The notes beneath the pieces were generated by a model. That model saw only the letters and a list, made by a program, of their open reading frames with translations. It searched no databases and was not told where the DNA came from. Positions 1 to 13,006 of a stretch of DNA of 13,084 nt are shown here, one piece after another. The DNA comes from an uncultured Ruficoccus sp. GTDB lineage: Bacteria > Verrucomicrobiota > Verrucomicrobiia > Opitutales > Cerasicoccaceae. The stretch covers positions 1-13,084 of the forward strand of contig OZ223499.1 of NCBI GenBank assembly GCA_965140785.1, written 5' to 3'. The first letter of the stretch is position 1, and each line of letters opens with the position of its first letter. A program made the position numbers and the translations under genes.

Positions 1-457
1 CTGAGACAACATCATTTCCACTACAATCAACAAGAAATTGATGGAATTGAGCATCAATTAAAATATATTGATGAATTTTAGAATAATCACTTAATTTTAA
101 AAATTTATCTTTGAATTCTAATAATTTTTTAAAACAAACTGGATCATTTTTTTCTATGATTTTTTGAATGCTAAAGTGTTCAATTAGTACTCTATATTCA
201 TATATGTCTAATATTTGTTTTGTTGATAATTTTCTAACAGTAACAGGTTTATTTGGGGTACTATCTAATAGTCCTTCTCCAATTAATTCATTTATTGCAC
301 TATGTACAGGAGATCTACTTACATTTAATTGAGAGGCAACATCAACTTCACTTATCTTATCTCCAGGAGCATATTTGCCAGAAATAATATCATCTCTTAA
401 AATTTGGTAAACTTGTTCTTTTATGGTTTTGACAATTCTGTTTTTTTCTTTCTCCAT
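1..457 (-). CDS. GntR-family (FadR/FCD subfamily) transcriptional regulator, 3' end beyond the left window edge
   Basis: Not in the ORF track. Manual translation from ATG 457: MEKEKNRIVKTIKEQVYQILRDDIISGKYAPGDKISEVDVASQLNVSRSPVHSAINELIGEGLL (GntR winged HTH) ... DAQFHQFLVDCSGN (FCD-type motif). SD-like GAGGGA on the minus strand at about 462-467. Frame is open to the window edge. Confidence 0.93.
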   Translation of the reverse strand, partial: MEKEKNRIVKTIKEQVYQILRDDIISGKYAPGDKISEVDVASQLNVSRSPVHSAINELIGEGLLDSTPNKPVTVRKLSTKQILDIYEYRVLIEHFSIQKIIEKNDPVCFKKLLEFKDKFLKLSDYSKIHQYILIDAQFHQFLVDCSGNDVVS

Positions 458-580
458 TTTTTCCCTCAGTAATTAATTGTTATTTAAATATACTATTAAA
501 CTTTACAAAAGGCTATTGTTTTTGATTAAACACTCTTAAATAGTGTAAAACATAAACATTTACTAAACAAAGTTTTTTTC

Positions 581-609
581 TTGACAAAAATGACATCTGT
601 AATAATAAT
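581..609 (+). promoter_or_regulatory. sigma70-type promoter of the larA-like operon
   Basis: TTGACA (581-586), 17-bp spacer, AATAAT (604-609). Predicted transcription start near 616. Confidence 0.7.
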
Positions 610-615
610 AAGAGA

Positions 616-645
616 ATAATGAATGATGCATGCATCATTCATTAT
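616..645. promoter_or_regulatory. Perfect 30-bp palindrome, candidate GntR operator
   Basis: ATAATGAATGATGCA|TGCATCATTCATTAT is its own reverse complement. It lies just downstream of the -10 box, between the divergent gntR and the operon. Confidence 0.75.
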
Positions 646-675
646 ATATTGTGCATGTATTATTGAGGAGAAAAA

Positions 676-1950
676 ATGATAAAGGATATTCTTCTTCCCT
701 ATGGTCAAAGTAAAATGCTATTAAAAATTGATGAAAATCGATTAAATGGTATTATTTCTGTTGATCAAGAAGAAACAAAAATAAAACCCAATGAAAAACA
801 AATTGTTCTTGATGCTTTAGCAAATCCTATTGGAAGTGAAACCCTATCAAAACTTGCAGTAGATAAAAAAAATATAGTAATAGTAACAAGTGATCATACA
901 AGAGCTGTCCCAAGTATGATTACAATGCCATTGCTATTAGAAGAAATAAGAAAAGTAAATGAGTCTGCAAAAATTACTATTTTAATTGCAACTGGTCTTC
1001 ACAGAGGGATGACTGATGAAGAGATGATTGAAAGATTTGGTAGTAAAATCTTTAACGAGCAAATAATAATTAATCATGATGCTTTTGATAATGATAATAA
1101 TCAATTTTTAGGTATTCTACCTTCTGGATCCAAGTTTGAAATGAATAAAATAGCTGTTGATGCTGATCTTTTGATTGCTGAAGGTTTTATTGAACCTCAT
1201 TTTTTTGCTGGTTTTTCGGGGGGAAGAAAAAGTATTCTTCCAGGAATTGCTTCGGCAACTTGTGTAAATATTAATCATAGTGCACCACAAATTGCATCAT
1301 CTTTTGCTACTACGGGAGTTCTTGATAAAAATCCTATACATGAAGATATGGCTAGTGCTGCTAGAATTTCAAAAATTGCTTTTATTTTAAATGTGCTTTT
1401 AAACGATGAAAAGAAAATAGTAGCCGCTTATGCGGGTGATGTTGAAAAAGCTCATAGAAAAGGATGCAATCAACTCATAAATCAGAATGGTATAAATTCA
1501 ATAAAAAGTGAAATAGTTATAACAACAAATGGTGGTTACCCTTTAGATCAGAATTTATATCAATGTCCAAAAGGTTTATCTAGTGCATTAGAGTGTGTGA
1601 AAGAAGATGGTATTTTAATTTTAGTTGCTTCCTGTAGTGCGGGCTTAGGTGGTGAGAACTTTGGAAAGATGATGCAAAGTGGGACACCCCAAGAACTATA
1701 TGACAGAATTCTATCAACACCCATGGAAGATACTATTTCTGAGCAATGGTGTGTTCAATGTTTTTCCGCTTCTTTGTTGAAATATAAGATAATACTAGTT
1801 TCTATGCTTGAAAAAGAGCTTGTTGAAAAAATGGGTTTTATTTATGCAAGTGATGTAAATACTGCTTTAGATATAGCTTATGAAATAAAAGGTAACAAAT
1901 CAAAAGTTACAGTAATCCCTGATGGTGTATCTGTAATTATAAAAAAATAG
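676..1950 (+). CDS. larA: LarA-family nickel-pincer-nucleotide-dependent 2-hydroxyacid racemase/epimerase (lactate racemase homolog)
   Basis: 424 aa. Motifs SDHTR, ATGLHR, GFIEPHFFAGFSGGRKSILPG, NHS and GGYPLDQNLYQxxKG are characteristic of LarA. SD GAGGAG at 665-670. Family is confident; substrate is not. Confidence 0.92.
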   Translation: MIKDILLPYGQSKMLLKIDENRLNGIISVDQEETKIKPNEKQIVLDALANPIGSETLSKLAVDKKNIVIVTSDHTRAVPSMITMPLLLEEIRKVNESAKITILIATGLHRGMTDEEMIERFGSKIFNEQIIINHDAFDNDNNQFLGILPSGSKFEMNKIAVDADLLIAEGFIEPHFFAGFSGGRKSILPGIASATCVNINHSAPQIASSFATTGVLDKNPIHEDMASAARISKIAFILNVLLNDEKKIVAAYAGDVEKAHRKGCNQLINQNGINSIKSEIVITTNGGYPLDQNLYQCPKGLSSALECVKEDGILILVASCSAGLGGENFGKMMQSGTPQELYDRILSTPMEDTISEQWCVQCFSASLLKYKIILVSMLEKELVEKMGFIYASDVNTALDIAYEIKGNKSKVTVIPDGVSVIIKK

Positions 1951-1962
1951 GAGAAAAATGAT

Positions 1963-2292
1963 ATGAGTAAAGCAATTAAGCTTAATGAAAAAGATAATGT
2001 TGCAACTGTATTTAGTGATGTTAAAAAAGATGATATTTTAGAAATTTTAACCCATAAAGGTGAATCCTGGAATTTGAAAGTACTAAACGATATTCCATAT
2101 GGTCATAAAATTGCGCTTGAAGATATTAAGATTGGACAGCAAATTACAAAATATGGTGAAGAGATTGGAATTGCAAGCAAAGAAATTGAAGCTGGGGATT
2201 ATGTCCATATCCATAATATTGAAAGTATTAGAGGCCGTGGGGATTGGAATGAAGAAAAACAATCTGAAATCACAACTAATATGGTTAAGTAA
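1963..2292 (+). CDS. SAF-domain small subunit of a UxaA/GarD-family dehydratase
   Basis: 109 aa. DNVAT...IPYGHKIALEDI..G..ITKYGEEIG.A...I.AG.YVH.HN is the UxaA N-terminal SAF domain. SD AGGAG overlaps the larA stop codon. Confidence 0.92.
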   Translation: MSKAIKLNEKDNVATVFSDVKKDDILEILTHKGESWNLKVLNDIPYGHKIALEDIKIGQQITKYGEEIGIASKEIEAGDYVHIHNIESIRGRGDWNEEKQSEITTNMVK

Positions 2293-2304
2293 GGAGAACT
2301 AATA

Positions 2305-3480
2305 ATGGCAAATAAGGAATATAAATTTTTTGGATATGTAAGAAAAGATGGGAAAGTTGGAACTCGAAATTATGTTGCAGTAATTCCATCTGTTGTTTGT
2401 GTAGATGAAGTTGTTGAATCAATAGTTAATAATACTTCTGGAACACAAGGTATTATTCATCATCAAGGGTGTTGTCAAACTCCTCCTGATTTAGAAAGAA
2501 TTACTGATTGTTTAATCAAAATTGGAGAAAATCCTAATGTTGGAGCTGTTTTAATTGTAAGTCTTGGTTGTGAAGGTGTTGATACCGATAGATTAGAAGC
2601 TGAAATAAAGAAAACAGGAAAACCTGTTGAAAGAATAAATGTTCAAGAATTAGGTGGTACAAGCCGTTCAATTCAAGTTGGTATGGATAAAGCTCAAAAA
2701 TTAATAAGAGAAATTTCTTCACAACAAAGAGAAGAAGTAGATATTTCTAATTTTGTAATGGGAATTAAATGTGGTGCATCTGATACTACTTCAGGTATTG
2801 CTTCTAATCCAGTAATTGGATATATCGCAGATAAGATTGTCGATCTTGGTGGTACTGTAATATTTGGAGAAACAACTGAATTTATTGGAGCAGAACATAT
2901 ACTTAAAAGAAGAGCAAAAAATGAACATGTTGCATCCGAAATTGGTAGAATCGTTACTGAAATGGAAAATAGAGCTAAAGCAATTGGTGTTGATATGAGA
3001 AAAGGTCAACCAACACCAGGTAATATCAAAGGTGGTTTAAGTACAATCGAAGAAAAATCTTTAGGAGCTATTGTTAAATCAGGAACAAAAACAATTGAAG
3101 GTGTTATTGATTATACTGAAGCTCCAAAAGGAAAGGGGCTTTGGATTAAAGATTCTCCAGGTCGTGAAATTGAACTTTTATCTGGCATGGCAGTTGCTGG
3201 AGCAGATGTAATATTGTTTTCAACAGGTCGTGGAGCACCTCAAGGCTTTCCAGTTGTTCCTGTAGTAAAAATATGTGGGAATCCAATTACCTATAACAGG
3301 ATGCAAAATGATATGGATATTAATGCAGGATTGATTACATTAGGTGAAAAATCTATTGCTGAGATTGGAGAAGAAACTTTTGAGATGCTACTTAGAGTGG
3401 CAAATGGTGAAAAGAGTAAAGGGGAATCAATTAATTACAATAAATCAATGGATTTCTATTGCTTAGGCCCAGTCATTTAA
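2305..3480 (+). CDS. UxaA/GarD-family (altronate/galactarate dehydratase-like) large catalytic subunit
   Basis: 391 aa. Motifs FFGYVRKDGKVGTRN, HHQGC, SLGCE, KCGASD, GETTEFIGAE, PTPGNIKGGLSTIEEKSLG, FSTGRG. SD AAGGAG at 2291-2296. Confidence 0.93.
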   Translation: MANKEYKFFGYVRKDGKVGTRNYVAVIPSVVCVDEVVESIVNNTSGTQGIIHHQGCCQTPPDLERITDCLIKIGENPNVGAVLIVSLGCEGVDTDRLEAEIKKTGKPVERINVQELGGTSRSIQVGMDKAQKLIREISSQQREEVDISNFVMGIKCGASDTTSGIASNPVIGYIADKIVDLGGTVIFGETTEFIGAEHILKRRAKNEHVASEIGRIVTEMENRAKAIGVDMRKGQPTPGNIKGGLSTIEEKSLGAIVKSGTKTIEGVIDYTEAPKGKGLWIKDSPGREIELLSGMAVAGADVILFSTGRGAPQGFPVVPVVKICGNPITYNRMQNDMDINAGLITLGEKSIAEIGEETFEMLLRVANGEKSKGESINYNKSMDFYCLGPVI

Positions 3481-3643
3481 TGTTATTCAAAAAATAGTTT
3501 TTAGTTTTTATTAACACTATTTGTATTGGATTATTATTTTAATTTATCGTTGTGAATATGAGCTATCTATATCAGCGAGGTACTTGTGTATTTATAGCTC
3601 TTTATGTTTGAAAATAAACAGAAAAATAAAGGAGGAGATTATT

Positions 3644-5026
3644 GTGGGTGATATAAATATTGCTAGAGTAATCATCGGATTAGTAGTAGCTATTGGATTA
3701 ATTTTTTATTGTTCAACACGTACTAAAATTCATGTTTTTGTTGCTATGATCCTTGGCGCGGTTCTTGCGGGATTATTAATCGGTTTGCCAATTGGTTCCA
3801 TAACATCGTCTATTAAAACAGGCTTTGGTGGCACTTTAGGTTCCATTGGTATTGTTATCGGTCTTGGAGTAATGATGGGTGCAATCTTTGAAGCAAGTGG
3901 CGCGGCAAAAAGAATGGCTATTACTTTCATTCGTGTCTTAGGAGAGGGGAAAGAAGATATTGCAATGGCTATAACAGGTTTTATTGTTGCTATTCCAGTA
4001 TTTTGCGACAGTGCTTTTGTTATTCTTACACCACTAGCTAAATCTTTATCAAGAAAAACAGGTCGTTCTATTGTAACTATTGGTTGTGCTTTAGGCGCTG
4101 CTTTATTAACAACTCATTCTCTTGTTCCTCCAACCCCTGGTCCATTAGCAATTAGTGGTTATTTCGGATTAGATATGGGTAAATTTATTTTACTTGGTTT
4201 ATTATATGCTCTTCCAATTTCAATTGCAGGTATTTTTTATGCAAGATGGGTTGGTAAGAAAATTTATAAAGTTCCTAATCCATTAGATAATGGTTCATTA
4301 ATTGATAGACCTTATACTAAAGAAGAATTAAATAGTTACTCTGGTGTTATTAATGACAAAGATATTCCTAGTACTTTCTTATCATTTTTACCTATTGCAC
4401 TTCCAATTGTATTAATTTTATTAAATACTTTAGCTAAAGCAGTTGGTATGGCAGACGGAACTTTAAGAAGTGTAATTGCATTAATAGGAGATCCTGTTGT
4501 AGCTGTAATGATTGGTTTATTAGTTTCAATATTTACCCTTGCAAGAAATATAGATAGAAAAGAAGTAATTAGCTTATTAGATAAATCTATTGAACAAGCA
4601 AGCGTTATTATATTTGTAACTGGAGCTGGTGGAGCCTTAGGTCAAGTATTAAAAGATAGTGGAGCAGGATCTGCTATTGCCAATATTATGTTAAATTCAA
4701 ACATTCCTGGTATTCTACTACCATTCTTTATGGCATATTTACTTAGAATAATTACTGGTTCAGCTACAGTTGGTATGTTAACAGCTGGTTCTTTAACAGC
4801 TCCAATTATTCTTGAAATGGCTACTGTAAACCCATATTTAGCAGGATTAGCTTGTTGTATTGGTTCTATTGGTATTACCAACGTACATGATAGTTATTTC
4901 TGGGTTGTAAATAAATCTATTGGTCTAACAGATATGAATGAAATGTTTAAAAACTGGTTCGGTTGTGTATTAACAATGTCAACTGTTGGTTTCGTTTTCT
5001 TAATGATTGGAAATATTTTTATGTAA
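3644..5026 (+). CDS. GntP-family (gluconate:H+ symporter-like) sugar-acid permease
   Basis: Highly hydrophobic. Motifs GFGGTLGSIGIVIGLG, AIPVFCDSAFVIL, HSLVPPTPGP, GAGGALG.VL, HDSYFWVV. Start revised from TTG 3521 to GTG 3644, which follows SD GGAGG at 3631-3635 (460 aa). Confidence 0.92.
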   Translation: MGDINIARVIIGLVVAIGLIFYCSTRTKIHVFVAMILGAVLAGLLIGLPIGSITSSIKTGFGGTLGSIGIVIGLGVMMGAIFEASGAAKRMAITFIRVLGEGKEDIAMAITGFIVAIPVFCDSAFVILTPLAKSLSRKTGRSIVTIGCALGAALLTTHSLVPPTPGPLAISGYFGLDMGKFILLGLLYALPISIAGIFYARWVGKKIYKVPNPLDNGSLIDRPYTKEELNSYSGVINDKDIPSTFLSFLPIALPIVLILLNTLAKAVGMADGTLRSVIALIGDPVVAVMIGLLVSIFTLARNIDRKEVISLLDKSIEQASVIIFVTGAGGALGQVLKDSGAGSAIANIMLNSNIPGILLPFFMAYLLRIITGSATVGMLTAGSLTAPIILEMATVNPYLAGLACCIGSIGITNVHDSYFWVVNKSIGLTDMNEMFKNWFGCVLTMSTVGFVFLMIGNIFM

Positions 5027-5050
5027 ATTATTTATATAAGTATTATATTG

Positions 5051-5095
5051 AAAATAGTTCTATTGCTAAATATTTGGTGATAGAACTATTTTGTT
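5051..5095 (+). terminator. Probable intrinsic terminator of the larA-dehydratase-gntP operon
   Basis: Long hairpin AAAATAGTTCTATTGCTAAA / TTTGGTGATAGAACTATTTT. All three mismatches are G-U pairs on the + strand. T-rich tail. Confidence 0.7.
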
Positions 5096-5206: not shown

Positions 5207-6442
5207 ATGTCAAAAATTAATAAATCTAAAAAAATTGGGATTAAAGATTCTTTTCAATTAAATTACAATGTAATGCCTTTTCTCTTGTCTGTGTTGTTTT
5301 TTGGAATAACAAATAGTATAGCAAAAGCTTTAATGAATAATTATCTTGCTGATATTATTAGGATTTCAAAAATACAATTAGGTGTTGTTGAATTTTTTAG
5401 AGAGCTCCCTGGCTTGTTTTTAATTTTCATTTTAGCTTATTTATATAAGCAAAGTGATAAAAAGAATTACCAAACAGCAATAATTATTTCAATGTGTGGT
5501 TTCTTAGGCCTTACATTTTTAGGAACCAATCTTTGGGTTGTTATTTTTTTCTTAGTAATGAATAGTTTTGGAGAGCATATTAGTATGCAGGTTAGACAAA
5601 GCTTAGCCGTTGAAATGTCTAGAGAAAATATGAATGGTAATTCACTTGGAATAATGCAAGGCTTTAGATCTTTAGGGAATATTTTAGGATTTTTAATAGT
5701 TCCAATATTGTTTTTAATATTATCTAAATTTGGATTTGGTAGAGATACTGCTAAAAGTTATAAAGCTATTTATTTTATTGCAATGTTAATTGCTTTTGTT
5801 GCATATATTTTTACATCTAAGATTCCTAAACTTCAATCAGAAGAAAAAGTAGGGCCAAAAATATATTTTCATAAAAAATATGGAAAATATTATATACTTT
5901 CCTTTTTTTATGGAGCTAGAAAACAAATATTTATTACATTTGCTCCGTTCGTATTAGTATTAAATTATGGAGCTAGTGCTTCATATATGGCAATATTATT
6001 TGCAATTACAGCAGGGTTATCTATAATCTTTGCACCTATTATTGGTAAGATAATTGATAAAGTTGGTTATAAGAAAGTAATGATAGGGGATACCCTCTTA
6101 TTAATTATAGTTTGTTTCTTTTATGGTTTTGCTCATAGATTATTTTCGCATAATGTCGCATTTTATGTAGTTAGTATAAACTATATACTTGATTCCATTC
6201 TTTCAATTTGTAGTATGGCTTCTTTAGTCTATTGTAAAGCTTTATCTGCAAATCAAGAAGAATTTGGTAAAACTATTACAACTGGTATTTCAGTTAATCA
6301 TTTAATTAGTATTATTATTGCGTTATTAGGTGGTTTAATTTGGCAACTTGCTGGGATTGAAATGTTATTTACCATTTCTGCAATATTAGGATTATTAAAT
6401 AGTATTTTTGCAGCAACAATTAAAGAAATAAAAAAAAGTTAA
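5207..6442 (+). CDS. MFS transporter, substrate unknown
   Basis: 411 aa with roughly 12 hydrophobic segments in two halves. MFS motif-A-like GKIIDKVGYKK in the C-terminal half. Confidence 0.88.
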   Translation: MSKINKSKKIGIKDSFQLNYNVMPFLLSVLFFGITNSIAKALMNNYLADIIRISKIQLGVVEFFRELPGLFLIFILAYLYKQSDKKNYQTAIIISMCGFLGLTFLGTNLWVVIFFLVMNSFGEHISMQVRQSLAVEMSRENMNGNSLGIMQGFRSLGNILGFLIVPILFLILSKFGFGRDTAKSYKAIYFIAMLIAFVAYIFTSKIPKLQSEEKVGPKIYFHKKYGKYYILSFFYGARKQIFITFAPFVLVLNYGASASYMAILFAITAGLSIIFAPIIGKIIDKVGYKKVMIGDTLLLIIVCFFYGFAHRLFSHNVAFYVVSINYILDSILSICSMASLVYCKALSANQEEFGKTITTGISVNHLISIIIALLGGLIWQLAGIEMLFTISAILGLLNSIFAATIKEIKKS

Positions 6443-6494: not shown

Positions 6495-6523
6495 TTGCTT
6501 TCAATATCTGTCATTATTATAAT
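6495..6523 (+). promoter_or_regulatory. sigma70 promoter of the YheO-like regulator (predicted leaderless transcript)
   Basis: TTGCTT (6495-6500), 17-bp spacer, TATAAT (6518-6523). ATG begins at 6531, after 7 intervening nt. Confidence 0.7.
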
Positions 6524-6530
6524 AGCACCT

Positions 6531-7169
6531 ATGATTTCTAAAGAGTATTTAATAATAATGTGTCAGTTTTTTAGTGAAATTCTTGGTCCAACATCTGAAG
6601 TGCTTCTTCATGATGCTAAAAATGGAGCCATTGAATGGATAAATGAAGATTCTATTTCTTGTCGAAAGATTGGAGATATTAATACAACATCAATTCTAAA
6701 ATTATTAAATTCTAAGTGTGAGAATAATAATACAAATAGAATAATTGGTGTTTTAAATACCTCTGAAAAAAATACATTGATTAGAACAAGTAATTTAATG
6801 ATTAGAGATGATGATGGAAATTTGCAATATGTAATATGTATAAATCAAGATATTACAGCTCTTGCTAATATCCAGCCTTTTATAAACCATATGTTTTCAG
6901 AAAAAGGAAAGAAAAATATTGAGTTTAACGACAATAATGATAATGCTGATATAGAAGAAATAATGACTAGTATTATTTTAGAAGAAGTTAAACACGCTGA
7001 TGTTTATAAATTAGAAACAAAATCTGCAAAAATGTCTGTTTTAATTAGACTTTATAATCGTGGTATTTTTAAAGTAAAACAAGCAATTCCAAAAGTATGC
7101 GAGGTCTTAGATATTGCTCAGCCAACGCTTTATAAATATCTTAAGCAAATAGAAAAAGAAGAAGAATAA
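6531..7169 (+). CDS. YheO/DauR-like transcriptional regulator (PAS_6 plus HTH_22)
   Basis: N-terminal FFSEILGPTSEVLLHD, R.IGD, IRTS...IRDDDG....ICINQD; C-terminal LYNRGIFKVKQAIPKVCEVLDIAQPTLYKYL. Start revised to ATG 6531 because the track's TTG 6495 is the -35 box. Confidence 0.88.
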   Translation: MISKEYLIIMCQFFSEILGPTSEVLLHDAKNGAIEWINEDSISCRKIGDINTTSILKLLNSKCENNNTNRIIGVLNTSEKNTLIRTSNLMIRDDDGNLQYVICINQDITALANIQPFINHMFSEKGKKNIEFNDNNDNADIEEIMTSIILEEVKHADVYKLETKSAKMSVLIRLYNRGIFKVKQAIPKVCEVLDIAQPTLYKYLKQIEKEEE

Positions 7170-7194
7170 TTTAAAAATAATTCGAGTTTGTTTT

Positions 7195-7232
7195 AATCAT
7201 TAATAGTACTTAACTATTGATGATTTTTTTTT
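7195..7232 (+). terminator. Intrinsic terminator after the YheO-like gene
   Basis: Stem AATCATTAATAGT / ACTATTGATGATT (one G-U), 5-nt loop, T run to 7232. Confidence 0.7.
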
Positions 7233-7473
7233 ATCCAAAATAAGCAAAATGGATAAAAATTTATAATAAATTCTCTATTTTAATTTCAAAATTGATTTAT
7301 TTTTTATTTTTCATTAAAATTTTATAATTATTAAAGTGATTAATTAAAGTTTTAAAGTGTTGTTATATATCTTTTTTAGTTTATTATTTTAAGATTATTA
7401 TTTTTAATATGATTTTTATCACATTAAAAATGAAAAAAACTTAAAATTTTATTTTTAATTATATAATAATATA

Positions 7474-7523
7474 TTGACACCTAAATGCGGATAGATTATT
7501 ATCTCTATGGATAAAAAATTATC
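7474..7523 (+). promoter_or_regulatory. sigma70 promoter with two overlapping candidate operator boxes
   Basis: TTGACA (7474-7479), 17-bp spacer, TATTAT (7497-7502). Boxes GATAG-ATTA-TTATC (7490-7503) and GATAA-AAAA-TTATC (7510-7523). Confidence 0.72.
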
Positions 7524-7537
7524 ATTTAGGAGCTATT

Positions 7538-8554
7538 ATGAAAGCGAAAGAATTTTCTAATAAAGTTTTAACAGGTATGAGCATCGGTATTGTTGCCGCC
7601 CTTGTTCCAAGTGCAATCCTTGGAGAAATTAGTAAAGCATTAGGACTTACTACAATAGTATTAATTACCGGTATGGCTACAAAATTTGCAGCTTTTGCAA
7701 TGGGATTATGTATTGCTGGTCAATTTAAGATGAAACCAATTCATTCTGTTGCACTTGCTATTTCAACAATGATTGGAAGTGGTGCTATAAAAATGGTTGA
7801 AGGATCTATGGTTTTAGCAGGATTAGGAGATGTAATAAATGCGGGTCTAACAGCAGCCTTTGCCGCTTTACTTCTTCTGTGGTTTGGTGATCGTTTTAAA
7901 AGTTATACTATGATATTAGTCCCAACTTTAACTATTGCAATAAGTGGACTTTTTGGTTTGTTTACTCTTCCTTATATATCAATGATTACAGGCGCTGTAG
8001 GGCATTTCATTGCTTGGTGTACAACTTTACAACCAATATTAATGGGGGCATTAATATCAATGAGTTTTGCAGTAATAATTATATCACCAATATCGACAGT
8101 AGGTATAGCTCTTGCCGTTTCTTTATCAGGAATAGGATCTGGTGCAGCAAATTTAGGAATTTGTGCTGCTGGATTTGGTCTTGCAATTGCAGGATTTGAG
8201 AAAAATGGTTGGGGAACATCTTTAGCCTCTGTATTAGGTTCTCCTAAATTACATATGGCTAATTTCCTAAAAAATCCAAAAATGACTTTGCCTTTAATTT
8301 GTAATGCTGCAATTCTAGGAATTTTAGCAGGTATTTTTGGTATCGTTGGAACACCTATGAGTGCAGGATTTGGAATTAGTGGATTAATTGGTCCTTTGAA
8401 TCACCTTGGTATTGTAGGTTTTAGTTTAATAAACTGGATAATTACAATTATTATATTCATTATATTACCTATTGTATTTGGTTTTATTTTTAAAAATATT
8501 TTCTTTAAAGGTTTTAAAATTTTAAGCGCAGATGATTATGCCGTTGAAATATAG
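7538..8554 (+). CDS. PTS EIIC-like membrane protein (PTS_EIIC_2/PfoR-like), no EIIA/EIIB partner in window
   Basis: 338 aa, Gly/Ala-rich hydrophobic. Motifs VLTGMSIGIVAALVPSAILG, GLGDVINAG, LQPILMG, IISPISTVGI...L.G...GAA.LG, LGSPKL.M.N, GTPMSAGFG.SGLIGP. SD AGGAG at 7528-7532. Confidence 0.85.
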   Translation: MKAKEFSNKVLTGMSIGIVAALVPSAILGEISKALGLTTIVLITGMATKFAAFAMGLCIAGQFKMKPIHSVALAISTMIGSGAIKMVEGSMVLAGLGDVINAGLTAAFAALLLLWFGDRFKSYTMILVPTLTIAISGLFGLFTLPYISMITGAVGHFIAWCTTLQPILMGALISMSFAVIIISPISTVGIALAVSLSGIGSGAANLGICAAGFGLAIAGFEKNGWGTSLASVLGSPKLHMANFLKNPKMTLPLICNAAILGILAGIFGIVGTPMSAGFGISGLIGPLNHLGIVGFSLINWIITIIIFIILPIVFGFIFKNIFFKGFKILSADDYAVEI

Positions 8555-8564
8555 GGAGAAGGTT

Positions 8565-9560
8565 ATGAAAGAAAAAATAAAAGTTACAGCGTTTGCAAGT
8601 CGCCCTGATGAAAGAAGTAGTTTTGATTTATTTGAAGATAAATTAAATTTAGAAATTAAACATGTTAGTGCTCAATTGTCACTAGATGTTGTTGAACAAG
8701 CAAAAGGAAGTATCGGGGTAACCGTATTAGGTAATTGTGATTGTTCAAAAGAAGTGTTAGAAGCTTTATCGAAATTAGGTGTAAAATATTTAGCTAGTAG
8801 AAGTGCCGGTTATAATAATATTGATGTTGAAGCAGCAAAGAAATTAAATATAAAAGTTAGTAATGCTCAATATTCTCCAAATTGTGTCGCAGATTTTGCT
8901 ATAATGCTTGCCTTGATGTTAAACAGAAAAGTATTAACAGGTTTAAAACGAAATATTGCTAATGATTTTTCATTGCCAGGATTACAAGGTCAAGAAATGA
9001 AGAATATGACTGTTGGAATTATTGGGACCGGAAGAATTGGTCAAGCAGTTATTAAAAATTATAGTGGTTTTGGGTGTAAAATTATTGGATATGATTTATA
9101 TGAAAACGAAGAAATGAAAAAGTATATTACTTACGTTGATTTGGATTATCTTTTTAAGAATTCTGATATTATTAGTCTTCATACCCCGCTTTTTGATAGT
9201 ACTTATCATATAATTAATAATGAAAGTATCGCTAAAATGAAGAAAGGTGTGAAAATTGTTAATACTGCAAGAGGTGAATTAATTGATACTCAGGCATTAA
9301 TTGATGGACTTAAATCAAGACAAATTGGTGGAGCAGGATTGGATGTTTTAGAAAGTGAGCAAGGAGTTTTCCACAGTGATTGCAGATTTAAAGGCTTTGT
9401 AAATGATCATATTTCAATTTTAAAATCACTTGACAATGTAGTTTTAACAAATCATTTTGCTTTTTATACTGATCAAGCAGTTGAAGATATGGTTTATTGT
9501 GGATTAAACAGTCTTTATCAATTTGTAAATACAGATACTGCAGATTTCGAAATTAAGTAA
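8565..9560 (+). CDS. NAD-dependent D-isomer-specific 2-hydroxyacid dehydrogenase (D-lactate dehydrogenase-like)
   Basis: RSAGYNNID, YSPNCVA, Rossmann GTGRIG, GYD acidic residue (NAD preference), ISLHTPL, NTARGELID, LDVLESE, H(F)AFYT. Start revised to ATG 8565 after SD GGGAG (331 aa). Confidence 0.92.
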   Translation: MKEKIKVTAFASRPDERSSFDLFEDKLNLEIKHVSAQLSLDVVEQAKGSIGVTVLGNCDCSKEVLEALSKLGVKYLASRSAGYNNIDVEAAKKLNIKVSNAQYSPNCVADFAIMLALMLNRKVLTGLKRNIANDFSLPGLQGQEMKNMTVGIIGTGRIGQAVIKNYSGFGCKIIGYDLYENEEMKKYITYVDLDYLFKNSDIISLHTPLFDSTYHIINNESIAKMKKGVKIVNTARGELIDTQALIDGLKSRQIGGAGLDVLESEQGVFHSDCRFKGFVNDHISILKSLDNVVLTNHFAFYTDQAVEDMVYCGLNSLYQFVNTDTADFEIK

Positions 9561-9641: not shown

Positions 9642-10148
9642 CTATTGGATTGAGTATTCAATTTTTACATTACTTACATAGTTACCAGCAGGAAGTTCTG
9701 AGTTACCAGACCAACTTAAGTTGAATTTATTAACTAGTAATGAAATATGTTTTCCAGCTACTAAAGTATCAAGTGAAGAAATTGTATTTACTTGTGGTTT
9801 AATATTTGAATCAAAATCATTTTTACCATTGTTTAAAGTTGTTTTAAAGGTATCAGGAGAAACTTTTACTGTAACAGCTAAGTCTTTATTCATATTAGAT
9901 GTAGCATTAATAGTAAAGTCTTTAGTTGAACCATTTTCAGTTAAAGGAGCTACAAAGATAGAATAATCTTCAACACCATTATTTAATACTTCATTGTTAT
10001 AAGCTAATTGATAAGAAACAGGAGTTTCTTTAATAGAAGTCTTTAATTGAACTTCAGCAGACTTACCAGAATGGGAAGGAGAATACATAGCGAACATAGA
10101 AGTCATTGCGATTGCACTTATAGTTAAGATAGTTAATAGTTTTTTCAT
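9642..10148 (-). CDS. Hypothetical secreted/exported protein
   Basis: 168 aa. Signal-peptide-like MKKLLTILTISAIAMTSMFA, Ser/Thr/Asn/Val-rich mature part. SD AAGGA on the minus strand at about 10159-10163. Has its own promoter and terminator. Confidence 0.85.
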   Translation of the reverse strand: MKKLLTILTISAIAMTSMFAMYSPSHSGKSAEVQLKTSIKETPVSYQLAYNNEVLNNGVEDYSIFVAPLTENGSTKDFTINATSNMNKDLAVTVKVSPDTFKTTLNNGKNDFDSNIKPQVNTISSLDTLVAGKHISLLVNKFNLSWSGNSELPAGNYVSNVKIEYSIQ

Positions 10149-10465: not shown

Positions 10466-10735
10466 TTATTTTTTAACTCTCCATCCATCTTCAATGATTT
10501 CTTTAATAGATGAATAAAATTTAATTAATAAATCTGTTTTTGAATCATATAATTTGTAATTTTTGATTATTGCGTCTTTTAATTTTATATATCCGCATTT
10601 CCCATTGCTGTTTTTCATTGTACAGCCTTTTTTATTTTTTGAAAAATCGGATCTAAAAATATCATAATCCAATGAAACTAGAGCATTTCTTGTTTTTACT
10701 CTTTCTTCATGATTCCAATCATCATAATTATTCAT
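10466..10735 (-). CDS. Small hypothetical protein (89 aa)
   Basis: Start revised from 10786 to ATG 10735 (MNNYDDW...), which follows SD GGGGAG (10750-10745). A terminator follows. No family recognised. Confidence 0.75.
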   Translation of the reverse strand: MNNYDDWNHEERVKTRNALVSLDYDIFRSDFSKNKKGCTMKNSNGKCGYIKLKDAIIKNYKLYDSKTDLLIKFYSSIKEIIEDGWRVKK

Positions 10736-11028
10736 AAATATAATCTCCCCTATTATAATTATATTTTTTGATTTGTGAGATAACAAAGTTAAGGATAGTC
10801 TGGCAAAATATTTAATTGTTATATATCTAATAATAGTATATATTTTATAAATAATAAAGTTTTTTATTTTAAAATACTTGATTGAAAATATCCAAAAAAT
10901 GAAAATTATATTGTGAAATAAAAAAATATAATTAATTGTTTAAGTTTAAATAGATTCCTATAAATAATTTATTACAAAAACATTTTTGATATTAAATATT
11001 TAGATATTATAATTAAAAAAAAGTTTGA

Positions 11029-11799
11029 TTAAGTGTTACATTTTAAAATAATTGATTTAGTTTTAAAGAAAGTTGTCCATTCTTTACTTGGTCTTTTATT
11101 TGTAATTACATACTTGATTTTATTAAAATCTTCAATTTTTGTTAAGCTAGATTTACCAAATTTTGTGTGATCAACAACTAAAAAAGCCACATCACTGTTG
11201 TTTATCATTTTAGCTGTAATTTGAGCTGCAAATTCATTGTCATGACTTAATCCAAAATCAAGAGATATGGAAGTTGGGCTTATAAAAGTTTTATCACAAT
11301 GTAATTTATTTAAGTTATCTATTGTAATATTTCCCCTAAAAGCATTTGCATTATTTGTTAAGTTTCCTCCTAAGCAGATTGTTTTAATTAATGGATTATT
11401 TGATACTAAATTAATAATAGACAGCGAGTTGGTTATAATTGTGGCTTTTAATTGTTTTAAGTTTAATTGTTTAGCAATGCATAAACTTGTTGAACTTGAA
11501 TCAAGCATTATTATATCTCCATCATTTATAAAAGAGGTTGAAATATTAGCTAAAGATTCCTTCTCTTTCATCATTACTTGTTCTCTGAGTTGGATTGGAA
11601 TGGATTTATCAAAAGTATCAATTTTATAGGCTCCACCATGTACTTTAATTATTCCAAAATTCTTTTTAGATAAATAATCTAAGTCACTTCTTATTGTTTC
11701 CATTGTAACATTTAACAAAGCTGCTAAATTTTTAACAGTAATAGTTTTTTCTTTATCCAATATGGTTTTTATTTGATCTCGTCTTTCTTTTGCTATCAT
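11029..11799 (-). CDS. DeoR/GlpR-family transcriptional regulator
   Basis: 256 aa. ERRDQI...V..LA..LNVTMETIRSDL...KVHGGA HTH. Sensor motifs IMLDSSST, IITNSL, LGG, VDHTKFG. Confidence 0.95.
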   Translation of the reverse strand: MIAKERRDQIKTILDKEKTITVKNLAALLNVTMETIRSDLDYLSKKNFGIIKVHGGAYKIDTFDKSIPIQLREQVMMKEKESLANISTSFINDGDIIMLDSSSTSLCIAKQLNLKQLKATIITNSLSIINLVSNNPLIKTICLGGNLTNNANAFRGNITIDNLNKLHCDKTFISPTSISLDFGLSHDNEFAAQITAKMINNSDVAFLVVDHTKFGKSSLTKIEDFNKIKYVITNKRPSKEWTTFFKTKSIILKCNT

Positions 11800-11965
11800 A
11801 TAGTTTCCTTAAAACAAAATTTAGTCTTTTTATAAAATTAGCATTAATATCTTATTAAGTAAAGAAATATTATGGTTTTAATAAAAAATCTTTTTCCTTG
11901 ACTTTTGGTTTTTTTCGTGTTTATATGATAGAAACAATGAAAAACAAAATAAAAAAAGGTGAATC

Positions 11966-13006
11966 ATGAACAGACTAGATGATGGAATGGCATTTATTTT
12001 AAAGTATGAAAATATTGCATGGTATAGCGAAGGTAAAGTTAGAATTTTAGACAGAAGGATTTATCCAATCGAGGTTAGATTTGTTGAATGTACGACTTAT
12101 AATGAAGTAGCTCAAGCCATTACAGATATGGTTACTCAAAGTTGGGGACCTTATTTTGCTGCAGGAATGGGGATGGCATTAGCCGCTTATCAAGCTAGAA
12201 GTCTTAAGGAAGTAGATTTTGTTAGTTTTATGCATAATGCAGGAATAGCTCTTTATACTGCTAGACCAACAACATCAGCTTTTATGAAAGAGATTGTTGA
12301 AAAATGTGAAGTAGCTGCTGTTAATGCAAAATTAAGAGGGAACTCAGCAATTGATGCGGCTTTTAATACAACAGTAGAATATTATGATGAAATATATACA
12401 TCCTGTAAAATCATGGGTAAATACCTTGTTGATAATTTTCCTAATAAAGGAACTGTAATGACTCAATGTTGGGCTGAAACTGTTGTTGGAATGATGCTTA
12501 AATCAATTAGAGAACAAAATAAAGATATTAAATTTTTCTGTCCTGAAACACGACCTTATTTTCAAGGTGGTAGACTTACTGCAAGTTGTATAAAAGATAT
12601 GGGTTTTGATGTAACTGTTATTACAGATAATATGCCAGGTTATGTATTAGAAAAAAAGAAAGTTGATGTATTTACTTCTGCCGCTGATGTAATTTGTATG
12701 GATGGTCATATAGTTAATAAAGTTGGAACTTTCCAAATTGCATTAGCTTGTAAATATTTTGGTATTCCATATTATGTTACTGGTAAGCCTAATTTATCTC
12801 ATAAAGATAAAGCTTCGATTGTAATTGAAGAGAGGGATCCAGAATTAGTATTACATGCACTTTCTCAAAAGTTTACTTATGAAGGTGTTAAAGGCTATTA
12901 TCCTGCATTTGATATTACTCCTCCTGAATTATGTGCTGGTGTTATTACCGATAGAGGGCAATTTGATTCACATTGTTTAGATGAATATTATAAAGAGAGT
13001 AAATAA
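11966..13006 (+). CDS. mtnA: MtnA/eIF-2B-family aldose-1-phosphate isomerase (methylthioribose-1-P or 5-deoxyribose-1-P isomerase-like), divergent subfamily
   Basis: 346 aa. Motifs ILDRR.YP, ARPT, ETRPYFQGGRLTA, VITDNM, AADVI..DG.IVNKVGT, IEERDP, YPAFDITPP. SD AAGGTG upstream. Symbol indicates family only. Confidence 0.85.
   Translation: MNRLDDGMAFILKYENIAWYSEGKVRILDRRIYPIEVRFVECTTYNEVAQAITDMVTQSWGPYFAAGMGMALAAYQARSLKEVDFVSFMHNAGIALYTARPTTSAFMKEIVEKCEVAAVNAKLRGNSAIDAAFNTTVEYYDEIYTSCKIMGKYLVDNFPNKGTVMTQCWAETVVGMMLKSIREQNKDIKFFCPETRPYFQGGRLTASCIKDMGFDVTVITDNMPGYVLEKKKVDVFTSAADVICMDGHIVNKVGTFQIALACKYFGIPYYVTGKPNLSHKDKASIVIEERDPELVLHALSQKFTYEGVKGYYPAFDITPPELCAGVITDRGQFDSHCLDEYYKESK

Follow-up and report, generated by a model that had tools for sequence, protein, structure and literature searches.

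Why would a LarA-type racemase be encoded directly in front of a split dehydratase of the UxaA/GarD type, and which acid would the two enzymes share? The question is raised by the first 5.1 kb of the stretch of DNA analyzed here (the window), which is an entire contig of 13,084 nt (C28 of assembly G000; G+C content 28.4%). The gene set at 1-5.1 kb was confirmed and comprises a regulator, a LarA homolog, a split dehydratase and a GntP permease, located as listed below. We propose, at about an even chance of being right, that these genes make up a self-contained catabolic cassette under GntR repression, whose substrate would be a small (C3-C4), chiral 2-hydroxy acid with a leaving group at C3. 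The initial annotation, which had seen in them a candidate undescribed pathway for a sugar acid or hydroxy acid, is as a whole partly supported by our analysis.

Positions 2-457, minus strand: GntR-family regulator with an FCD (FadR-type) ligand domain, divergent from the operon; the contig end cuts the gene, leaving only the N-terminal 152 amino acids (Pfam GntR 1e-16, FCD 2e-05).
Positions 581-609, plus strand: sigma-70-type promoter-like site, TTGACA-17-AATAAT, with 11 of 12 consensus matches (a consensus match only).
Positions 616-645, no strand assigned: perfect 30-bp palindrome, candidate GntR operator, whose arms (616-630 and 631-645) are 100% complementary.
Positions 676-1950, plus strand: LarA homolog of 424 amino acids (PF09861 Lar_N 5.9e-63, PF21113 LarA_C 1.7e-50).
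Positions 1963-2292, plus strand: SAF small subunit of 109 amino acids (Pfam SAF 3.7e-4; positions 2-78 of TIGR03248 at 2.7e-11).
Positions 2305-3480, plus strand: UxaA/GarD-type large subunit of 391 amino acids (GD_AH_second 1.4e-36, GD_AH_C 1.1e-87).
Positions 3644-5026, plus strand: GntP-family permease, in an open reading frame (ORF) open from TTG 3521 (GntP_permease PF02447 3.9e-117; TIGR00791 321 bits against a cut-off of 292.75).
Positions 5051-5093, plus strand: AT-rich terminator-like hairpin with a U-rich tail (19-bp stem, free energy -20.4 kcal/mol, z -4.79 against shuffles).

To see how widely these genes travel together, we scanned a public genome-contig collection, one genome per species, for relatives of the LarA homolog and obtained 54 loci. 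LarA is directly followed by the SAF and large-subunit genes in 14 of them (L012-L016, L018-L021, L023, L024, L026, L036 and L060), which belong to Sphaerochaetaceae, Spirochaetaceae, Oscillospiraceae/Angelakisella, Dorea and Desulfovibrio piger, L012 being essentially the window itself. Among these 14, a GntP gene follows in ten and a GntR homolog was detected adjoining in four. No SAF/GD_AH gene was found in the remaining 40 loci, one of which (L017) ends 171 nt past LarA and cannot be judged. Six further Sphaerochaetaceae loci, with LarA proteins 55-61% identical to that of the window, contain the GntR, LarA and SAF genes in every case, the large subunit in five and GntP in four, the missing genes being cut by contig ends. 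The gene order of the cassette thus recurs in 20 further loci and is beyond chance. A phylum-wide sample of Spirochaetota yielded LarA matches at E ≤ 1e-100 in 3 of 200 further genomes, all at 46-48% identity, and was uninformative.

The linkage also follows the phylogeny of LarA. In a quick maximum-likelihood tree, from which two fragments of fewer than 350 amino acids (L057 and L058) were dropped, 34 unlinked rows form one clade with a support of 98 in the SH-aLRT branch test, and the other side of that branch holds the 15 linked rows together with L017 and L025, the latter truly unlinked. The adjacency across four phyla, confined to one side of a supported LarA branch, supports a functional coupling of the racemase or epimerase with the dehydratase, as had been supposed from the window's gene order. 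The large subunit is the better conserved of the two, with 81% identity against 61% for LarA in Treponema sp. OMZ 840, for example, where the two genes are on contigs of equal length. We also annotated the neighbors of the loci, taking all ORFs of at least 120 amino acids and Pfam. The flanks of the window, L012, L015, L016, L019 and L074-L077 are mutually unrelated (restriction genes, MsrB, ABC transporters, phosphotransferase system (PTS) genes, DnaJ and polysaccharide genes, among others). Beside the cassette, in the window and the annotated loci, we found no conserved gene for a keto-deoxy-acid kinase or aldolase, a glycerate kinase, a sulfite exporter or a sulfolactate dehydrogenase.

Two linked loci have a richer surrounding. 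In D. piger (L024:42-11232) the order is a sigma-54 activator (PrpR_N), a Cys-poor, SuyAB-like SAF/GD_AH pair, TctCBA, LarA, a Cys-type SAF/GD_AH pair and an enolase-superfamily protein. In the Oscillospiraceae locus L018, genes for a LysR protein, a TRAP (tripartite ATP-independent periplasmic) transporter and an enolase-superfamily protein 49% identical to the D. piger copy come after the module. Both enolase-superfamily proteins resemble galactonate dehydratases and fall below every model cut-off. As a separate observation, the L024 island is a candidate sulfonate or acid-sugar locus, and D. piger is a sulfite reducer that has larB, larC and larE.

The LarA homolog scores 545.6 bits on the NCBIfam lactate racemase model NF033504 (cut-off 460) and falls far short of threshold on the malate-racemase, LarAH10, LarAH14/15/16 and hexonate-epimerase models; on NF052595, which represents LarAH group 5 with the Mar1-type malate racemases, it reaches 286.4 of the 462 bits required. 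Its alignment with solved LarA structures, at ~50% identity, covers the full length (1e-129 to apo-LarA 2yjg and 1.7e-110 to 5huq). The window protein and all 20 linked homologs keep equivalents of the catalytic H108 and H174 of LarA1 (Lactiplantibacillus plantarum) and of its R75, K184 and H200, which bind the nickel-pincer nucleotide (NPN). The residue string is RHHFFKHWC and the pocket motif E-Q-W-C, and in the alignment the LarA1 positions 175, 176, 358 and 359 are F, F, W and C. At these specificity positions lactate racemases have F-F-W-E/Q and gluconate epimerases E-V-A-H, and malate racemases have H/Q-K at the last two (PMC11770544). The window protein shares with LarA1 and the lactate racemase (LAR) group the two-domain architecture, the catalytic and NPN-binding residues and F-F-W. 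It differs in having Cys at position 359 in place of E/Q, in belonging to a separate E-Q-W-C clade that adjoins the split dehydratase, and in the lack of lar maturation genes nearby and, mostly, in the rest of the genome. Enzymes of the LAR group also racemize glycerate, 2-hydroxybutyrate, 2,4-dihydroxybutyrate and 2,3-dihydroxybutyrates (PMC11770544 Table 2).

The cysteine itself is found at the T359 position of LarAH42 (Enterocloster asparagiformis) as well, which was weak on everything tested (PMC11770544). E-Q-W-C occurs in all linked LarA proteins and always together with the dehydratase adjacency; the unlinked ones have W-E (12), W-Q (4), D-Q-W-C (19) or E-Q-W-N (L025), and three are gapped or distant. 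We considered Cys at position 359 as a marker of a new substrate and rejected it, because the unlinked D-Q-W-C clade lies in lactate-utilization contexts. In Coprococcus catus a D-Q-W-C LarA adjoins an L-lactate permease (L050), and in a Lachnospiraceae strain (L041) it adjoins a GlcD-like oxidase, an acyl-CoA dehydrogenase and electron-transfer flavoprotein (ETF) genes.

The two genes downstream of LarA together carry all parts of the UxaA/GarD superfamily (COG2721), SAF, GD_AH_second and GD_AH_C, spread over two adjacent genes. Because the small protein matches the first 78 positions of TIGR03248, the pair is a split UxaA/GarD enzyme. On this GarD equivalog model the large subunit scores 239.9 bits against a cut-off of 730.85. 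The large subunit aligns with E. coli GarD (6u7l) at an E-value of 1.7e-58, with Cys32, Cys56, Cys89 and Cys156 falling on GarD cysteines, and these four residues are invariant in all linked homologs examined. By their spacing they probably correspond to Cys134, Cys173, Cys208 and Cys276 of D-arabinonate dehydratase, the four conserved cysteines of the superfamily that, according to the available part of Watanabe et al. (PMC6336799), are missing in SuyAB. The retention of all four suggests that the window enzyme is of the dehydratase type and not of the SuyB type, SuyB being compared by its published description only. The second SAF/GD_AH pair of D. piger (L024:2262-3557) lacks three of the four. 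The domains and the four cysteines are common to the window pair and the one-piece dehydratases UxaA (altronate), GarD (galactarate) and those for D-idonate and D-arabinonate, as far as the accessible text of PMC6336799 describes them, whereas the window enzyme is split in two genes and its context holds no downstream keto-deoxy-acid enzymes. Automatic names for homologs of the large subunit range over 'UxaA family hydrolase', 'altronate dehydratase large subunit', 'galactonate dehydratase' and '(2R)-sulfolactate sulfo-lyase subunit beta', and the LarA member is called 'lactate racemase'; for both proteins these annotations probably mislead.

From these features a simple route can be proposed. 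The acid would be imported by GntP, and the LarA-type enzyme would interconvert both configurations at C2. The two-subunit, presumably iron-dependent dehydratase would then strip water from the configuration that it accepts, by family analogy the L-like (2S) one, and the resulting enol would tautomerize to a 2-oxo acid with no further dedicated enzyme. The absence of consistently co-travelling genes suggests a product that needs no dedicated enzyme, which fits pyruvate, oxaloacetate or 2-oxobutyrate. Taken together, the lactate-racemase-like F-F-W pocket, the cysteine-keeping dehydratase and the self-contained cassette favor a C3-C4 2,3-dihydroxy acid, and make hexonates, aldarates and sulfolactate less likely. 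Most of the substrate pairs put forward in the initial annotation, which ran from allonate/altronate and altrarate/galactarate to glycerate, are not supported by this comparison, since the pocket is F-F-W-C and not E-V-A-H and no keto-deoxy-acid kinase or aldolase travels with the module; the latter makes hexonates and aldarates unlikely and favors C3-C4 acids such as glycerate.

Our first candidate, held tentatively, is the conversion of DL-glycerate to pyruvate. The family substrates D-altronate, D-arabinonate, the reacting end of galactarate and (R)-sulfolactate share an L-like configuration at C2, so that L-glycerate is the enantiomer that a glycerate-using member of the family should accept. 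The common natural glycerate is D-glycerate, and the racemase would supply it to the L-specific dehydratase. The same one-step reaction is known from dihydroxy-acid dehydratase, which we take to belong to an unrelated, IlvD/EDD-type family. There it is a promiscuous activity on D-glycerate that, in the available portion of PMC6982167, is used in cell-free cascades and is a target of enzyme engineering, that is, a weak side reaction as opposed to the dedicated natural enzyme proposed here. The module would be a new combination of two known enzyme families: no described pathway matches it in the literature searched, and the search found no paper that joins 'lactate racemase' and 'altronate dehydratase'. 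The claim of an undescribed pathway holds to this extent, with the qualification that an association of LarA homologs with COG2721 is already tabulated for LarAH group 5 (PMC7583248 Table S1).

Which organism carries the cassette matters for what follows. Of the other 49 contigs of assembly G000, 44 lie at 55-66% G+C and five (C9, C15, C20, C41 and C44) at 38-49%. The window is 99.5% identical to locus L012 across 9,947 nt, and another 3,311 nt match, at 99.6% identity, the neighboring part of L012's 2.38-Mb contig, which belongs to a metagenome-assembled genome (MAG) of Sphaerochaetaceae. The LarA gene is absent in all four same-genus relatives of G000 compared. The window contig thus comes from a low-GC Sphaerochaetaceae genome and ended up in the bin of an unrelated high-GC (~60%) assembly, and arguments at the level of the host must rest on Sphaerochaetaceae genomes (G041-G043) and not on G000. 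A 28% GC contig in a 60% GC bin would have led to the wrong host and to a wrong argument from absent cofactor genes. The five contigs of deviant GC in G000 may likewise be mis-binned. Sequencing runs containing the DNA of the stretch include salt-marsh and marine metagenomes (shares 0.6); no RNA run was listed among them.

Several observations weigh against a glycerate-type cassette that works as proposed. Among the characterized enzymes, the Cys-bearing LarAH42 has a glycerate activity of only 12 M-1 s-1, and the glycerate-preferring LarAH43, likewise from E. asparagiformis, has Gln at this position (PMC11770544). The D-Q-W-C clade has lactate permease or GlcD/ETF genes as neighbors, so that the cysteine is compatible with lactate racemization and is undiagnostic. 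The transporters vary by lineage between GntP, TRAP and tripartite tricarboxylate transporters (TTT), and the enolase-superfamily neighbors in L024 and L018 hint that in those lineages, at least, the substrate is a longer sugar acid. The stereochemical argument at C2 is one by analogy with the family, and the literature search found no natural dedicated glycerate dehydratase, so that the idea is novel but unprecedented. Finally, the genes for the cofactor are missing where they would be expected: none of larB, larC and larE was found over cut-offs in the near-complete, cassette-bearing Sphaerochaetaceae genomes G041, G042 and G043 (one of them a 3.0-Mb chromosome record), nor in G045, and LarC was found in only one of ten cassette-bearing genomes, that of D. 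piger, which also has LarB and LarE.

LarA enzymes need NPN, which is made by LarB, LarE and LarC, and a source lineage without detectable larB, larC and larE puts the NPN loading of the LarA protein in doubt. The initial annotation's assumption that the protein uses NPN thus holds for its intact NPN-binding and catalytic residues and meets a difficulty in the missing cofactor genes of the source lineage. In G041-G043 there is no LarC match at all, and the LarB and LarE models give sub-cut-off matches only, of about 40 and 31 bits or less, which we take to be other proteins of the AIR-carboxylase and PP-loop folds. The binned assembly G000 is also without LarB, LarC and LarE, but the window contig is foreign to it. 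By comparison, LarC is present in all five control genomes with an unlinked LarA (three Clostridiaceae/Peptostreptococcaceae isolates, Faecalimicrobium and Coprococcus catus). Of 81 evenly sampled Sphaerochaetaceae genomes, 40 encode LarA homologs (E ≤ 1e-30), one to five in each, and LarC was found in three (G063, G075 and G092), LarB in two and LarE in two (G063 and G092 for both). G063 alone has a LarA homolog together with all three maturation genes, which leaves 39 of the 40 LarA-bearing genomes without a complete larB/larC/larE set. Many genomes of this sample are MAGs whose completeness is unknown, relatives among them do not count as independent, and plasmids or unbinned contigs are possible; the absence from 39 of 40 is nevertheless more than incompleteness alone would give. 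Possible explanations are an uptake of NPN from neighbors, an unknown biosynthetic route, or a function of LarA without NPN. The accessible parts of PMC11796402 and PMC13524815 discuss the reverse case only, larB, larC and larE without LarA, and the literature search found no nickel-pincer paper on salvage or cross-feeding. The source genome also encodes a second, 31% identical LarA homolog (G041:C2:900802-902001).

The same gene order can be read in other ways. With 3-sulfolactate as the substrate, LarA would racemize the (S)- to the (R)-form and the split enzyme would be a SuyAB-type sulfo-lyase yielding pyruvate and sulfite, a one-enzyme substitute for the SlcC/ComC pair. SuyAB, the characterized heteromeric member of the superfamily according to the available text of PMC6336799, resembles the window pair in having two genes for a small SAF and a large subunit, and in both systems C2 of a C3 acid would be inverted before the C3 substituent is eliminated to give pyruvate. 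The accessible part of PMC11193023 states that (S)-sulfolactate must be inverted before SuyAB acts, and this source and bioRxiv 10.1101/2023.08.01.551581, as far as available, describe SuyAB together with the SlcC/ComC two-dehydrogenase 'racemase'. Moreover, the sulfo-lyase name mentioned above was given to an 83%-identical homolog, and the LarA gene of D. piger comes just after the Cys-less second SAF/GD_AH pair and the TctCBA transporter. The cassette departs from the sulfolactate system in using one LarA-type enzyme in place of two dehydrogenases, in retaining in its large subunit all four cysteines reported missing in SuyB, in having no cationic residue in the pocket where malate racemases carry Lys, and in lacking sulfite-handling genes: neither the window nor the other annotated loci contain a TauE/SuyZ-type sulfite exporter, a sulfite reductase or a sulfolactate dehydrogenase. 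The literature search found no paper connecting LarA with sulfolactate, and we judge this substrate improbable. We give a similarly low probability to a dicarboxylate module, in which LarA would epimerize tartrate stereoisomers and one isomer would be dehydrated to oxaloacetate. Its product is a central metabolite, tartrates are epimerized by malate-racemase-type LarA homologs (PMC11770544 Table 2), and the module is accompanied by TTT and TRAP transporters in L024 and L018. It also resembles LarAH group 5, whose tested member is Mar1 of Desulfitobacterium hafniense and where a LarA homolog is genetically linked with a UxaA/GarD-type dehydratase and with a transporter for organic acids: the group is 100% associated with COG2721 and TctA/TctC transporters, with 19 COG2721 genes around 15 group-5 members (Desguin et al. 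2020, PMC7583248 Table S1). The window LarA is not of group 5, however, by its score on NF052595 (286 bits against 462), it has W-C where malate racemases have H/Q-K and so lacks their Lys, and the spirochaete and Angelakisella versions use a GntP permease where group 5 has TctABC.

A longer sugar acid, the initial annotation's proposal, whether a tetronate, pentonate, hexonate or aldarate epimer pair leading to one 2-keto-3-deoxy acid, would agree with the GntP family of the permease, with the enolase-superfamily sugar-acid dehydratase homolog that adjoins the module in two lineages, and with the one-piece members of the superfamily, whose substrates in the available part of PMC6336799 are altronate, galactarate, D-idonate and D-arabinonate; that source also deduces a heteromeric L-fuconate dehydratase from gene context. 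The pocket is of the lactate-racemase type and not the E-V-A-H of gluconate epimerases, no KDG-type (2-keto-3-deoxygluconate) kinase or aldolase is conserved with the cassette, and the GarD model TIGR03248 stays at 239.9 bits of the required 730.85, and we think such an acid improbable too. Least probable is an ordinary lactate racemase that merely adjoins an unrelated dehydratase. The LarA homolog does exceed the lactate racemase equivalog cut-off, its homologs are so named, and its sister D-Q-W-C clade stands beside a lactate permease or GlcD-like and ETF genes; yet lactate has no C3 leaving group, the dehydratase adjacency with its 12-nt spacing is kept in 20 loci and four phyla amid changing flanks, and the cassette contains no lactate permease or lactate dehydrogenase. 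A last explanation concerns the cofactor and not the substrate, namely that in its real host the LarA homolog is not a working NPN enzyme, being inactive unless the cofactor is supplied externally or performing other chemistry. This would account for the missing LarB, LarC and LarE of G041-G043 and G045 and for the sparse maturation genes of the 81 Sphaerochaetaceae genomes, set against the LarC of all five controls. On the other side, every linked homolog, across phyla and at identities as low as ~50%, keeps the catalytic residues and those that anchor NPN without exception, which argues for selection on the NPN site; the cassette and larB, larC and larE co-occur in D. piger; and the many MAGs and possible plasmids or unbinned contigs noted above apply here as well. 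We consider a LarA without NPN function unlikely.

The regulatory layout of the cassette agrees in part with the single transcription unit that had been described for it. The GntR winged helix and the FCD domain were both found, in the truncated window copy and in the full-length regulator of 225 amino acids at the near-identical locus (L012:7105-7782). The divergent region between the regulator and the LarA gene measures 218 nt, and gaps of 12 nt separate LarA from SAF and SAF from the large subunit. The palindrome sits directly 3' of the -10 hexamer, and the -35 hexamer and the palindrome core ATGCATGCAT are unchanged in four aligned spirochaete loci, which is consistent with the palindrome at 616-645 serving as the GntR operator. 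The region shows no overall excess of promoter-like sites (25, where 31.2 are expected). The gntP gene probably starts at GTG 3644, behind the ribosome-binding site AAAGGAGGAG, as this fits the 460-amino-acid ortholog in L015; the start leaves a gap of 163 nt upstream, in which a second promoter is possible. The genes, the promoter-like site and the hairpin of the initial annotation are thus retained, whereas its single promoter is called into question by the gap before gntP. Downstream of gntP the 19-bp hairpin is followed by UUUUGUUAUU; a consensus terminator scan did not report this AT-rich hairpin at 5051-5093. For the permease, no substrate-specific equivalog model reached its cut-off.

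The remainder of the window contains further genes. Directly after the operon terminator, positions 5207-6442 encode a major facilitator superfamily transporter to which no specificity could be assigned and which only L012 and L013 share. A second small module comprises a YheO-like PAS/helix-turn-helix regulator (6495-7169), a PTS_EIIC_2-family membrane protein (7538-8554) and a D-2-hydroxyacid dehydrogenase (8532-9560), whose start overlaps the preceding stop and which scores 301 bits on a generic VanH/D-lactate dehydrogenase model (cut-off 540); this module (6495-9560) is kept in L012 and L013 and absent from L015. The most AT-rich region (~20% GC) has two ORFs of 168 and 106 amino acids with no Pfam or NCBIfam match (9642-10148 and 10466-10786, minus strand). 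At 11029-13006 a DeoR regulator stands divergent to a gene of the MtnA-like S-methyl-5-thioribose-1-phosphate isomerase family (NF004326, 319 bits against 271), which looks like the beginning of an operon of the methionine-salvage or dihydroxyacetone phosphate (DHAP) shunt type, the rest being cut by the contig end. Upstream of the cassette, the near-identical locus (L012:3-5660) shows a defense-gene neighborhood with the C-terminus of a type I restriction R-subunit, a GmrSD-type endonuclease and an SMC-like ATPase, followed by MsrB.

What this analysis adds is the corrected provenance of the contig, the cysteine test against SuyB, a substrate range narrowed to small acids, and the observation that cofactor genes are lacking across the family. 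LarA homologs without larB, larC and larE throughout a family are the reverse of the case stressed in the accessible parts of PMC11796402 and PMC13524815, and they make the question of the cofactor's source directly testable. It is conceivable, if rather unlikely, that Sphaerochaetaceae, and probably some gut Oscillospiraceae, load an intact LarA with NPN or a late precursor from neighboring cells; NPN would then be a shared, vitamin-like organometallic cofactor in anaerobic communities, and the cassette the first dedicated natural racemase-dehydratase route from glycerate (or a 3-substituted lactate) to pyruvate. If the dehydratase does take glycerate, it would offer a natural counterpart to the activity that engineers, according to the available part of PMC6982167, now try to improve in a promiscuous enzyme. 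For the organisms that carry it, the cassette would be a compact, horizontally mobile route for a small chiral hydroxy acid in marine and salt-marsh spirochaetes, gut Clostridia and Desulfovibrio.

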